Assembly: GCA_963800415.1 (NCBI GenBank)
Contig: CAWDBS010000083.1
Coordinates: 210 to 64,209, forward strand
Direction of reading: 5' to 3'
DNA: 64,000 bases
Source: an uncultured Actinomycetes bacterium
Lineage (GTDB): Bacteria > Actinomycetota > Actinomycetes > Streptosporangiales > Streptosporangiaceae
Both the position numbers and the translations under genes were made by a program. This document shows, piece after piece, positions 4,997 through 11,682 of the stretch. Numbering within the stretch: the first letter of the stretch is position 1; each line of letters starts with the position of its first letter. Under the pieces are notes generated by a model, which saw only the letters and a list, made by a program, of their open reading frames with translations, made no database searches and had not been told where the DNA came from.

Positions 4997-5146
4997 GTCC
5001 CGGCCTGGCCAGGAACAACTGCATAACGACAACACTGACATCCCGTAGCCCCCGGCCCCGAGCGCCATGGCCGGTCCTCGGTAGTGGTCCCCGGGTTGCC
5101 TGCCCCTCAGTAAGGAGTACTAGTAGCACTGAGTAGTGCATGAGCA

Positions 5147-5187
5147 GGCAGCACCCGAGGGCTTCGATCGAAGACCGGCCGGCTGCC
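5147..5187 (+). promoter_or_regulatory. hairpin in the rpsO-pnp intergenic leader (candidate RNase III/autoregulatory processing stem)
   Basis: GGCAGC(5147-5152)...GCTGCC(5182-5187) enclose the 12-nt palindrome CTTCGATCGAAG. pnp leaders with processed stems are established in other bacteria. The equivalent sequence in the second duplicate unit (7935-7965) is degraded. Confidence 0.3.
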
Positions 5188-5260
5188 TCCCTAGGCGAGC
5201 CAGGCCACATGCGGCACGGCGGCGGGTGGGTGCGGGATCTACCGCAAGGAGGTCTCACCC

Positions 5261-7924: not shown

Positions 7925-8032
7925 CGCGGGCATAGAGGGCTTCGATGAAGACGGGGCTGCCTCTAGGCGAGCTAGCAGGCCACATGCGGCACGGCGGCGG
8001 GTGGGTGCGGATCTACGCAAGGAGGTCTCACT

Positions 8033-10398
8033 GTGGAGGGTGTCCACAGCGCTGAAGCCGTCATAGATAACGGTGAATTTGGCGTACACCAATCAGGTTC
8101 GAGACGGGCCGGCTGGCCCGTCAGGCTGACGGTTCGGCCGTGATGACGCTGGACGGCGAGACCGTGGTGCTTTCCGCGACCACCGCGTCCAGGCAGCCGA
8201 AGGAGAACCTGGATTTCTTCCCGCTCACGTGGACGTGGAAGAGCGGATGTACGCGGTGGGCCGGATTCCCGGCTCGTTCTTCCGCCGGGAGGGCCGTCCG
8301 TCCGAGGACGCGATCCTGACGTGCCGGCTCATCGACCGGCCGCTGCGCCCGTCCTTCGTCAAGGGCCTGCGCAACGAGATCCAGATCGTCGCGACCATCC
8401 TCGCGCTCGACCCGCAGCACCTGTACGACGTGGTGGCGATCAACGCCGCGTCCATGTCGACCCAGCTGGCGGGCCTGCCGTTCTCCGGCCCCATCGGCGG
8501 GGTCCGGGTGGCGCTGATCAAGGGCCACTGGGTGGCCTTCCCGACGCACGAGCAGCTGGCGCAGGCCACCTTCGACATGGTGGTCGCGGGCCGGGTGCTC
8601 TCCGCTGACCAAGGCGGGGACGGCGACGTGGCCATCATGATGGTCGAGGCCGAGTCCACGCCCGAGACGCTCAAGCTGATCGCGGACGAGGGCAGCGGCG
8701 CCGTCGCGCCGACCGAGGATACGGTGGCCGAGGGTCTCGAGGCGGCCAAGCCGTTCATCCGCGTGCTATGCGAGGCGCAGCAGCGGCTCGCCGCCGAGGT
8801 CGCGGCCGATGGCGCCAAGGCCGTCGAGTACCCGGTCTTCGTCGACTACGCCGAGGACGTGTACGAGGCGGTGGCGCGCGAGGTCTCCGACGAGCTGGCC
8901 AAGGCCCTGACGATCGCCGCCAAGCACGACCGCGAGGCGGAGACCGACCGGGTCAAGGCGCTGGCCGCAGGAGAAGCTCGCCGAGCAGTTCGAGGGCCGC
9001 GAGAAGGAGGTCAGCGCCGCGTTCCGGGCGCTGACCAAGAAGCTGGTCCGGGAGCGGATCATCTCCGGCGGGGTGCGCATCGACGGCCGCGGCCTGACCG
9101 ACATCCGGCCGCTGGCCGCGCTGACCCACGTACTGCCCCGGGTGCACGGGTCCGCGCTGTTCGAGCGGGGCGAGACCCAGATCCTCGGCGTGACCACGCT
9201 GAACATGCTCCGGATGGAGCAGATGATCGACACGCTCAACCCGGACCGCACCAAGCGTTACATGCACAACTACAACTTCCCGCCGTACTCGACCGGGGAG
9301 ACGGGCCGGGTCGGCTCACCGAAGCGCCGCGAGATCGGCCACGGCGCGCTCGCTGAGCGCGCGCTGCTCCCGGTGCTGCCGACGCGCGAGGAGTTCCCTT
9401 ACGCGATCCGGCAGGTATCGGAGGCGATCAGCTCCAACGGCTCGACCTCCATGGGTTCGGTCTGCGCCTCCACCATGTCCCTGCTCGACGCCGGCGTCCC
9501 GCTGAAGGACATGGTGTCCGGCATCGCGATGGGCTTGATCCACGAGGGCGGCCAGTACGTGACGCTGACCGACATCCTCGGCGCCGAGGACGCCTTCGGC
9601 GACATGGACTTCAAGGTGGCCGGCACCGAGCAGGTGATCACCGCGCTGCAGCTGGACACCAAGCTCGACGGCATCCCGGCCTCGGTGCTCGCCGGGGCCC
9701 TGAAGCAGGCCCGCGCGGCCCGGATGACGGTCCTGGACGTCATGCGCGGCGCCATCACCGAGCCGGGCGAGATGTCCGTCTACGCCCCGCGGATCATCAC
9801 CATCAAGGTCCCGGTGGACAAGATCGGCGAGGTCATCGGCCCGAAGGGCAAGATGATCAACTCGATCCAGGACGACACCGGCGCCGAGATCACGATCGAG
9901 GACGACGGCACCATCTACGTCGGGGCCACCGACGGGACGTCGGCCGAGGCGGCGCGGGCCGCGATCAACGCGATCGCCAACCCGCACATGCCCGAAGTCG
10001 GCGAGCGGTTCCTCGGCACGGTGGTGAAGACGACCACGTTCGGCGCGTTCGTCTCGCTGCTGCCCGGTAAGGACGGCCTGCTGCACATCACCCAGATCCG
10101 CAAGCTGCACGGCGGCAAGCGGATCGAGAACATCGACGAAGTGGTGCACATCGGCGACAAGATCCAGGTCGAGATCCGCGAGGTCGACGACCGCGGCAAG
10201 CTGTCGCTCGTGCCGGTCGAGGTGGTGGAGCGAGAGGCGGCCGGCGAGGACCTGTCCGGCGGCGACTCCCGCGGTGAGCGTTCCGGCGGCTCCAGGGACC
10301 GCGGCGACCGCGGCGGCGACCGTGACCGCGGCGGGGACCGCGACGGCCCGGACGGGCATCGCCGGACCCGGCACCGCACCCGCGGGCATCACGAATAG
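8033..10398 (+). pseudogene. pnp: polyribonucleotide nucleotidyltransferase (PNPase), copy 2, frame-disrupted
   Basis: GTG at 8033 is preceded by AAGGAGG. Relative to copy 1 there are 1-nt deletions at about 8088 (CACACAATC to CACCAATC) and about 8228 (CTCACCGTGG to CTCACGTGG), and a 1-nt insertion at about 8965. From 9073 to the stop at 10398 the 441-codon C-terminal part is uninterrupted. Confidence 0.85.
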
Positions 10399-11682
10399 AT
10401 GGCGACCGAAGAAGGCCGGGGAGTCCGTCGCACGGTCCTTCCCGGCGGCCTGCGGGTAGTCACCGAGTTCCTGCCCGCGGTGCGTTCCGTCGCGCTCGGC
10501 ATCTGGGTAGGGGTCGGCTCGCGCGACGAGGACCATGCGCACGCGGGCGCGACCCACTACCTGGAGCACCTGCTGTTCAAGGGCACCAGGCGGCGGACCG
10601 CGCTGGAGATCTCCGCGGAGATGGACGCGGCCGGCGGTGAGATGAACGCGTTCACCGCGAAGGAGTACACCTGCTACTACGCGCGGGTGCTCGACGCGGA
10701 CCTGCCGCTGGCCGTGGACGTCCTGTCCGACATGGTGACCAGCTCGCTGATCACGCCGAAGGACGTGGACGCCGAGCGCAACGTGGTGCTCGAAGAGATC
10801 GCGATGAACGACGACGACCCCTCGGACACCGTGCACGAGGCGTTCACCTCCAAGCTGTTCGGCGACACCCCGCTGGGCCGGCCGATCCTGGGCACCACGG
10901 ACTCGATCAACGCGATCACCAGGGACCAGATCCTCGAGCACTACCAGGCCCGGTACACGTCCGAGCACCTGGTGGTGGCCGCGGCGGGCAACCTGGACCA
11001 CGACACCGTGGTGGAACTGGTCAGGCAGGCCTTCGGCCCGGCGCTGGACCGGGCCGCCGAGCCCGCCGCGCCCCGGCTGGCCGGGGACCAGAACGGGCAC
11101 GCGGCCGGCGTGGGCACCACGCTGATCTCGCGCGGCATCGAGCAGGCCAACCTGGTGCTCGGCTGCGAGGCGCTGGCCAGGACCGACGAGCGCCGGTTCG
11201 CGCTCGGCGTGCTCAACGCGGCGTTCGGCGGCGGCATGTCCTCCCGGCTGTTCCAGGAGGTGCGGGAGAAGCGCGGCCTGGCGTACTCGGTGTACAGCTT
11301 CTCCGGGCAGCACGCCGACACCGGCATGTGGGGCATCTACGTCGGCTGCCTGCCTGCCAAGGCGGACGAGGTGCTGGCCATCTGCTCCGAGGAGATCAAC
11401 CGGGTGGTCCAGGACGGCCTGACGGACGCCGAGCTCGCTCGCGGCAAGGGCCAGGTACGCGGCTCGATCGTGCTCAGCCTGGAAGACCCGTCCTCGCGGA
11501 TGAGCCGCCTCGGCAAGTCCGAGCTGGTCTACCCGCGGCTGGAGCCGGTCGAGGAGGTGCTCGCCGCGATCGACTCCGTCAGCCACGACGACATCCGCGC
11601 GATCGCCGCCGACATCCTCACCCGCCCCAAGACCCTGTCCGTCGTCGGCCCCTTCGACGACGCCAGCGCCTTCCAGGCCTGA
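10399..11682 (+). CDS. M16 family zinc metallopeptidase (pitrilysin-like)
   Basis: The ATG directly follows the pnp stop. An HxxEH motif ([11 protein letters not shown]) is present and the 427-aa ORF is intact. This is the conserved position downstream of pnp in actinomycetes. Confidence 0.9.

Follow-up and report, generated by a model that had tools for sequence, protein, structure and literature searches.

A tandem repeat of the pnp locus in an actinomycete contig: probable joining of two strain variants during assembly

Known pnp operons and known duplications

The Actinobacterial rpsO-pnp operon with its Actino-pnp leader motif (RF01688) follows the order rpsO, hairpin, pnp, M16 peptidase, dapB. 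The window analysed here, a stretch of 64,000 nucleotides from an uncultured actinomycete, shows the same order, the full PNPase domain set and a leader match of 61.3 bits. It differs in copy number. The operon is single in 168 relatives, whereas here a second unit is present, carrying the 3' arm of the hairpin only.

Long-read metagenome assemblers were found to concatenate variants of subpopulations, to report direct duplications without any read support as well as variants supported by a single read, and to add unsupported indels that break open reading frames (bioRxiv 10.1101/2025.04.22.649783). Serious polishing errors were described for metaFlye with ~95% identical strains (bioRxiv 10.1101/2025.09.05.674543). 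Documented false duplications (bioRxiv 10.1101/2025.04.22.649783; Ko et al. 2022, PMC9516828) resemble our locus in several respects: a locus normally present once is directly repeated over a long stretch, the copies differ as co-occurring haplotypes do, a truncated gene lies at the junction, and unsupported indels break ORFs. The identity found here (95%) lies inside the 88-96% range reported for false repeats (bioRxiv 10.1101/2025.04.22.649783). The documented cases are defined by read clipping and a drop of coverage at the junction; ours is described from its assembled sequence, and its assembler is a presumed one.

Genuine bacterial tandem duplications, formed at short homologies or microhomologies, are likewise head-to-tail, and their junction likewise truncates a flanking gene. 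Recent ones consist of near-identical copies; those described here are 3.5-4.5% apart and differ in an orthologue-like pattern. A further difference is that sequence quality here decays toward the junction.

Architecture of the repeat and its relatives

All features described below lie on the forward strand. Upstream of the repeat stands an intact, single-copy rpsO (ribosomal protein S15; 4727-4996; translation, tblastn 100% identity), whose 89-aa product is identical in many related contigs. A sequence-only reading of this DNA had proposed a tandem duplication of the pnp locus, which blastn and global alignment bear out: unit 1 (5157-7929) and unit 2 (7935-10699) form a direct tandem repeat of 95.4% identity over 2784 columns, with 97 mismatches, 20 gap openings and 30 gap columns. 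The offset from unit 1 to unit 2 is 2768-2778 nt, and chance is far exceeded. Each unit comprises at least part of the pnp leader, pnp itself and the first ~97 codons of the M16 peptidase gene. Unit 1 contains the 3' arm of the leader hairpin, pnp copy 1 (5261-7630) and a truncated M16 fragment of ~97 codons (7631-7929), and unit 2 a partial leader, pnp copy 2 (8033-10398) and the first ~97-100 codons of the full-length M16 gene (10399-11682). The latter is intact, with Pfam domains Peptidase_M16 and Peptidase_M16_C and with residues 1-428 matched by tblastn in a single frame. An intact dapB (11727-12470) closes the usual rpsO-pnp-M16-dapB order. Other long repeats sought in the window were limited to domain-level repeats and one pair of 95-nt elements; no further false duplication was found among the long repeats searched.

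The Actino-pnp hairpin is complete upstream of copy 1 only (5070-5179; gathering score of the Rfam family 47.7 bits), while upstream of copy 2 no match was obtained in 7600-8300 even at E<=10. The left breakpoint of the repeat falls within this hairpin, so unit 2 retains nothing but the 3' arm. The units meet cleanly at ~7929/7935, and no N gap separates them. An imperfect, GC-rich microhomology of the breakpoints (GTGC.TGA.GC.GG, ~8 of 13 positions) lies in low-quality junction sequence; given its weakness and the poor quality of the sequence, we dropped it as an argument either way.

The comparison with relatives that had been suggested for this region gave a uniform answer. All 168 related loci, drawn from genomes and from ENA and JGI metagenomes, contain rpsO-pnp-M16-dapB once, and a second pnp was found in none of them. 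The closest relatives are MAGs of the MFD type ('contig_N'), which are Nanopore-only assemblies made by metaFlye with one Medaka round (PMC12313526). In three such long-read assemblies pnp is frameshifted as well, at positions that differ from those observed here. We also sought near-identical single-copy alleles of either copy; the best JGI metagenome matches (93% at protein level) are no closer than the MFD MAGs. A JGI contig also provides the match to a DUF397 protein of the window, at 92% identity. The left and the right flank are both closest to the same relative (L001), and no strain difference between flanks was discerned.

Divergence, frame breaks and sequence quality

It had been noted that the four differences within 5461-5640 are synonymous. 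The alignment confirms this, every one of them (5509, 5515, 5551, 5629) being in third codon position. The proposed dN/dS check extends the pattern to the full gene: substitutions are mostly synonymous and unevenly spread over codon positions 1/2/3 (19/11/60), and the Nei-Gojobori estimates are dS 0.10, dN 0.019 and omega 0.19, as against omega 0.12-0.18 for pairs of orthologues. These values uphold the earlier suggestion that the two sequences have evolved as functional genes. Within the pnp core, 17 synonymous and 5 non-synonymous changes fall on the branch of copy 2, and 11 and 5 on that of copy 1; the branches are symmetric, and the two copies, both of them constrained, evolved equally fast. 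The relaxed selection typical of a pseudogene was not observed (omega 0.10-0.19), nor were gene-conversion-like blocks of identity between the copies. In a multiple alignment the copies are 4.5% apart and each other's nearest relatives, while each differs by 5.1-6.2% from L001 and L081, two separate species-level relatives. The copies are thus about as distant as orthologues of different species-level relatives.

The truncated M16 fragment, placed at 7631-7924 by the sequence-only reading, is supported by Pfam (Peptidase_M16 profile positions 1-71 of 149), by tblastn matches split over two frames and by the polarised indels described below. Two more 1-nt deletions, at 7886 and 7922, were absent from that reading. 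The fragment cannot be functional. Its comparison with the full gene yields 9.5 synonymous and 6.5 non-synonymous differences (omega 0.23), a selection test that rests on 16 differences only (P 0.04-0.06), and its own branch has 3 synonymous changes and 1 non-synonymous change. Because a useless fragment still shows mostly silent changes, divergence of the copies should be older than the truncation.

Both copies were said to be frame-broken, and ORF analysis and tblastn indeed find three breaks in each. Copy 1, with a GTG start at 5261 and its stop at 7630, lost 4 nt at ~5830-5836 and shifts frame twice in its Arg/Asp-rich tail, at ~7491 (+2 nt) and ~7558. All of these are sites of variable length among relatives, namely the loop at ~5830 with its 15-nt/6-nt indel and the RD-rich tail; breaks at such sites would be expected of a mixed-haplotype consensus. 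Copy 2, with a GTG start at 8033 and its stop at 10398, lacks one nucleotide at ~8089 and another at ~8228 and carries one extra nucleotide at ~8967, from where the C-terminal 477 codons are intact. As the sequence stands, neither copy has a single uninterrupted PNPase reading frame. For copy 1, Pfam finds RNase_PH, PNPase, RNase_PH, KH_1 and S1 over two ORF pieces; in both copies matches of the pieces sum to RNase_PH, RNase_PH_C, PNPase, RNase_PH, RNase_PH_C, KH and S1, and tblastn with intact relatives covers PNPase residues 1-787. We judge the frame changes in both copies to be consensus errors.

The indels are distributed unevenly. Six of the seven events derived in copy 2 fall within the first 306 of 2821 alignment columns (P about 1e-5), and all events derived in copy 1 fall within the last 469 columns, that is ~470 nt before the junction (P about 8e-4). 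Consensus quality declines toward 7929/7935 from both sides, and an error-rich zone (7490-8230) flanks the junction. Such crowding is expected if no read spans it. The first 300 nt of unit 2 alone have 9 deletion events (11 nt), mostly contractions of C/G homopolymers; the region hit (leader, Shine-Dalgarno sequence and start) does not vary in copy 1 and hardly varies across all 11 relatives. Conserved genes in the rest of the window carry at least 8 frameshifts (FUSC, a hypothetical gene at 13655, SQS_PSY, shc twice, araD, araB), and 1-nt frameshifts disrupt at least six conserved genes besides pnp. Frameshift density is 1.4 per kb inside the repeat versus 0.14 per kb outside, a ten-fold excess (P about 1e-6).

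Possible origins of the repeat

We propose that the pnp duplication probably arose when a long-read metagenome assembler set two strain variants of a single gene head to tail. Among the options raised by the sequence-only reading, mis-assembly of two alleles in tandem plus indel errors is best supported and fits all evidence collected. Firstly, the locus is single-copy in relatives. Secondly, the copies show allele-like divergence under selection, and orthologue-like divergence together with constraint on a useless M16 fragment implies that the divergence predates the junction. Thirdly, quality declines at the junction itself. The frameshifts elsewhere in the window, the data type of the nearest relatives and the documented class of assembler error fit this reading as well.

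A possible course of events would start with two co-occurring subpopulations, presumably strains of one soil actinomycete lineage, each with a single-copy pnp allele, the alleles being ~3.5-4.5% apart. The assembler would leave the alleles uncollapsed and place them in series: left flank, allele A, junction, allele B, right flank. If, as we suppose, the junction is not truly covered by any single read, polishing reads with their anchor in the left flank would map to unit 1 and those with their anchor in the right flank to unit 2. Coverage would then drop toward the junction from either side, and the consensus there would remain close to raw-read quality. The other frame breaks would be ordinary consensus indel errors, either short C/G homopolymer contractions or partial indels, the latter sitting where the strains differ in length. 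The long-read platform and assembler assumed in this scheme are presumably those indicated by the data type of the relatives. An origin in chimeric reads was set aside as unnecessary, since assemblers are documented to yield duplications without read support.

The alternative that survives best is a real tandem duplication with both pnp genes intact in the cell, the indels being sequencing or consensus errors. We regard this option, also raised earlier, as unlikely; it needs an unusual history. The clean junction with its weak microhomology could fit illegitimate recombination, a true duplication would also make the copies mutually closest, purifying selection acts on both, and the background indel error rate suffices for some of the frame breaks. 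Nevertheless, none of the 168 related loci carries a second pnp. Junction-spanning reads should have polished the region uniformly, and instead quality collapses from both sides; nor is the frameshift excess expected of a well-covered repeat. An old duplication in situ is disfavoured by the M16 fragment, which shows no relaxed selection, and by the lack of gene-conversion-like blocks. If the duplication is real, copy 2 would have neither its own promoter nor the full Actino-pnp hairpin and would be expressed solely by read-through from copy 1. It would then be a modestly interesting second, leaderless PNPase allele from a related strain.

Given the orthologue-like divergence, the most plausible route to a real duplication is recent integration between strains, with homologous recombination at one end and illegitimate joining within the leader hairpin at the other. 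It is doubtful that a pnp-M16 segment of a ~96% identical relative was in fact inserted beside the resident gene in this way, with frame breaks again due to consensus errors. If true, two diverged functional PNPase alleles would coexist in one soil actinomycete, and the second might escape Actino-pnp autoregulation.

The contig might also copy a rare structural variant that a single read, or very few, brought in from a minor subpopulation; the duplication would be real in a few cells and unrepresentative of the population genome. Variants with one supporting read are known to appear in the output of assemblers (bioRxiv 10.1101/2025.04.22.649783), and the raw-read-like quality beside the junction fits such support. 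We consider this very improbable, as a recent duplication in one cell lineage would yield near-identical copies, and 97 orthologue-like differences would not arise from polishing by flank-anchored reads of a mixed population.

True inactivation of both copies by recent frameshifts, leaving an organism without PNPase, is what three breaks per copy would mean at face value, and it is hardly credible: omega of 0.19 and symmetric constrained branches do not resemble pseudogene evolution, the same type of 1-nt indel breaks conserved genes elsewhere in the window, related long-read assemblies have pnp broken at other sites, the breaks, where they do not coincide with sites of variable length, are for the most part contracted homopolymers gathered around the junction, and pnp (gpsI) is reportedly essential in Streptomyces and mycobacteria.

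If two strain variants were indeed joined by the assembler, as we propose, then the contig, and probably its MAG too, contains a false gene gain. Frameshifts number about one per 7 kb in the remainder of the window. Counts of pseudogenes or of gene copies, and contamination estimates based on single-copy markers, would mislead when taken from this contig or MAG. As biology, the repeat is probably unimportant: the genome most likely contains a single intact pnp, as do those of all relatives.

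Structure of the repeat at the pnp locus

The tandem duplication of the pnp locus claimed in the sequence-only reading was recovered as two direct repeat units, 5157-7929 and 7935-10699, which are 95.4% identical; their alignment of 2784 columns has 97 mismatches, and gaps open 20 times. Each unit contains a complete pnp gene, preceded by the 3´ portion of its leader and followed by ~97 codons from the start of an M16 peptidase gene; downstream of unit 2, the M16 gene continues full-length (10399-11682) and is followed by dapB (11727-12470). Because the left breakpoint of the repeat cuts within the Actino-pnp leader hairpin (5070-5179; the sole Rfam match, 61.3 bits), unit 2 holds only the 3´ arm of the hairpin.

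The reading frame of either pnp copy is interrupted three times, at the places given in the same reading: copy 1 (GTG start at 5261) at ~5830-5836, ~7491 and ~7558, the latter two in its Arg/Asp-rich tail, and copy 2 (GTG start at 8033) at ~8089, ~8228 and ~8967. When Pfam matches of the ORF pieces are summed, either copy has the complete PNPase domain set. The truncated M16 fragment ending unit 1 (7631-7929) carries two additional 1-nt deletions, at 7886 and 7922. All three breaks of copy 1 coincide with sites of natural length variation among relatives (the RD-rich tail and, at ~5830, a 15-nt/6-nt indel in a loop), as a mixed-haplotype consensus would yield.

The nearest relatives of the window (G+C ~70%) are uncultured Actinomycetes or Streptosporangiaceae-like MAGs, the best being locus L001 (CAVRMX010000036.1; about 93-94% nucleotide identity), followed by the ENA contigs L081, L087 and L088. 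Related loci were gathered from GTDB species representatives, ENA assemblies and JGI metagenomes; a second pnp was found in none of these 168 loci, and rpsO-pnp-M16-dapB occurs once in every locus of sufficient length. Four have a frameshifted pnp (L081, 10528-12890; L016; L028; L098), at sites other than those of the window, and all of these except L098 are MFD-type long-read assemblies. Names of the relatives (MFDxxxxx.bin, contig_N) fit the Microflora Danica long-read MAG set, which is Nanopore-only, with metaFlye assembly and one Medaka round (PMC12313526). Going by these relatives, the window was presumably sequenced likewise.

Divergence of the copies and indels around the junction

All four differences in 5461-5640 are synonymous third-position changes, as had been noted, and over the whole gene substitutions at codon positions 1, 2 and 3 number 19, 11 and 60. 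The Nei-Gojobori estimates for the two copies are dS 0.10, dN 0.019 and omega 0.19, versus omega 0.12-0.18 for orthologue pairs. In a 13-sequence alignment the copies are 4.5% apart, and each is only 5.1-6.2% from L001 and L081, which are separate species-level lineages. With branch changes polarised by six outgroups, the pnp core (codons 71-740) acquired 17 synonymous and 5 non-synonymous changes on the copy-2 branch and 11 and 5 on the copy-1 branch. The core is under constraint on both branches, and the suggestion that both sequences evolved as functional genes thus stands.

The M16 fragment of unit 1, ending at codon ~97, cannot be functional. Its omega is 0.23 (9.5 synonymous and 6.5 non-synonymous differences), its own branch bears 3 synonymous changes and 1 non-synonymous, and replacements are below the expectation for drift from the time of the split onwards (P 0.04-0.06 on a small sample). 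Even this useless fragment looks constrained; therefore the divergence predates the junction. The units come either from two genomes, or one of them was imported from another strain.

Indels are concentrated at the junction (~7929/7935). Of the 2821 alignment columns, the initial 306, directly after it, contain six of the seven copy-2-derived events (P about 1e-5), and the final 469, directly before it, all 4-5 copy-1-derived ones (P about 8e-4). Within 300 nt of its start, unit 2 has nine deletion events (11 nt), mainly shortened 2-3-nt C or G runs, which affect the 3´ arm of the hairpin as well as the Shine-Dalgarno and start regions; the same stretch is unchanged in copy 1 and almost so in 11/11 relatives, down to ~88% overall identity. 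This part of unit 2 looks like raw-read quality, and the indels in the repeat look like consensus errors. Such decay of quality on both sides matches the expectation for a false junction. Left-flank reads would map to unit 1 and right-flank reads to unit 2, with coverage presumably falling to zero near the junction; a fixed real duplication would be expected to show spanning reads and uniform quality instead.

Frameshifts and repeats elsewhere in the window

Outside the repeat, conserved genes contain at least 8 frameshifts. Single-nucleotide ones interrupt a FUSC-family gene (~3490-3520, at ~3516), araD (Aldolase_II; ~61.35 kb) and araB (FGGY kinase; ~62.4 kb); a conserved hypothetical gene has a 1-nt deletion at 13655, the squalene/phytoene synthase gene (SQS_PSY) is shifted at ~42.9 kb, and two breaks leave the squalene-hopene cyclase gene (shc) in three pieces. 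The density is 0.14 per kb (about one per 7 kb) versus 1.4 per kb inside the repeat (Poisson P about 1e-6). That every sixth gene should be broken in a free-living soil actinomycete is implausible; low-coverage Nanopore consensus from strain-rich soil is an ordinary explanation. The DUF2277 ORF (12487-12783) encodes 98 aa, versus 72-77 aa in relatives, with homology ending at ~12696, and may have lost its stop codon or carry a further frameshift at its 3´ end.

The shc gene belongs to a hopanoid-type cluster (~42600-51640) with genes for squalene/phytoene synthase, polyprenyl synthetase, LytB/IspH and a radical SAM protein carrying DUF3463. Two copies of a 95-nt element with many C6/G6 runs lie there (47645-47775 and 49031-49125), each containing the core GGGGGGACCCATCCCCCC two times. 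One copy lies within shc exactly at a reading-frame break, where Pfam SQHop_cyclase_N ends at profile position 187 and restarts at 197 in a different frame; the other directly follows the cyclase C-terminal domain. The element may be a small repeat, mobile or intergenic and able to form a hairpin, that inserted in shc; a further assembly artefact is the alternative. Further, a tandem array of 15-nt period (19301-19577) lies within a minus-strand ORF (18375-19979; 534 aa) that gave no match in a Pfam search, and probably encodes a Pro/Gly-rich repeat. A 33-nt periodic repeat (21161-21325) is part of an ORF also encoding a Band 7/SPFH domain, and three ~81-nt repeats (55765-56219) look WD40-like.

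Origin of the repeat

Among the options left open by the sequence-only reading, we favour the misassembly of two alleles in tandem: the repeat is probably a false duplication, produced by concatenation of haplotypes together with consensus indel errors. There are precedents. According to a survey, long-read metagenome assemblers join subpopulation-specific variants within contigs and yield long direct duplications without any read support, as well as unsupported ORF-breaking indels, commonest in metaFlye and metaMDBG (bioRxiv 10.1101/2025.04.22.649783). The myloasm preprint describes serious metaFlye polishing errors where ~95% identical strains co-occur (10.1101/2025.09.05.674543), and false duplications from haplotypes are well known in eukaryote assemblies (PMC9516828).

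Counter-evidence is limited. Firstly, the junction shows weak microhomology. Secondly, the two copies are mutual nearest relatives. A real duplication with error indels, likeliest in the form of an imported allele, would accommodate both points and the early divergence; against the uneven quality around the junction, we consider it rather unlikely. A rare variant from a single read, to which the raw-read look of early unit 2 might point, is a slim prospect. Real inactivation of both copies takes the breaks at face value and, with both branches constrained, is hardly credible. With false duplication by haplotype concatenation as the preferred reading, the case serves as a caution about this MAG.
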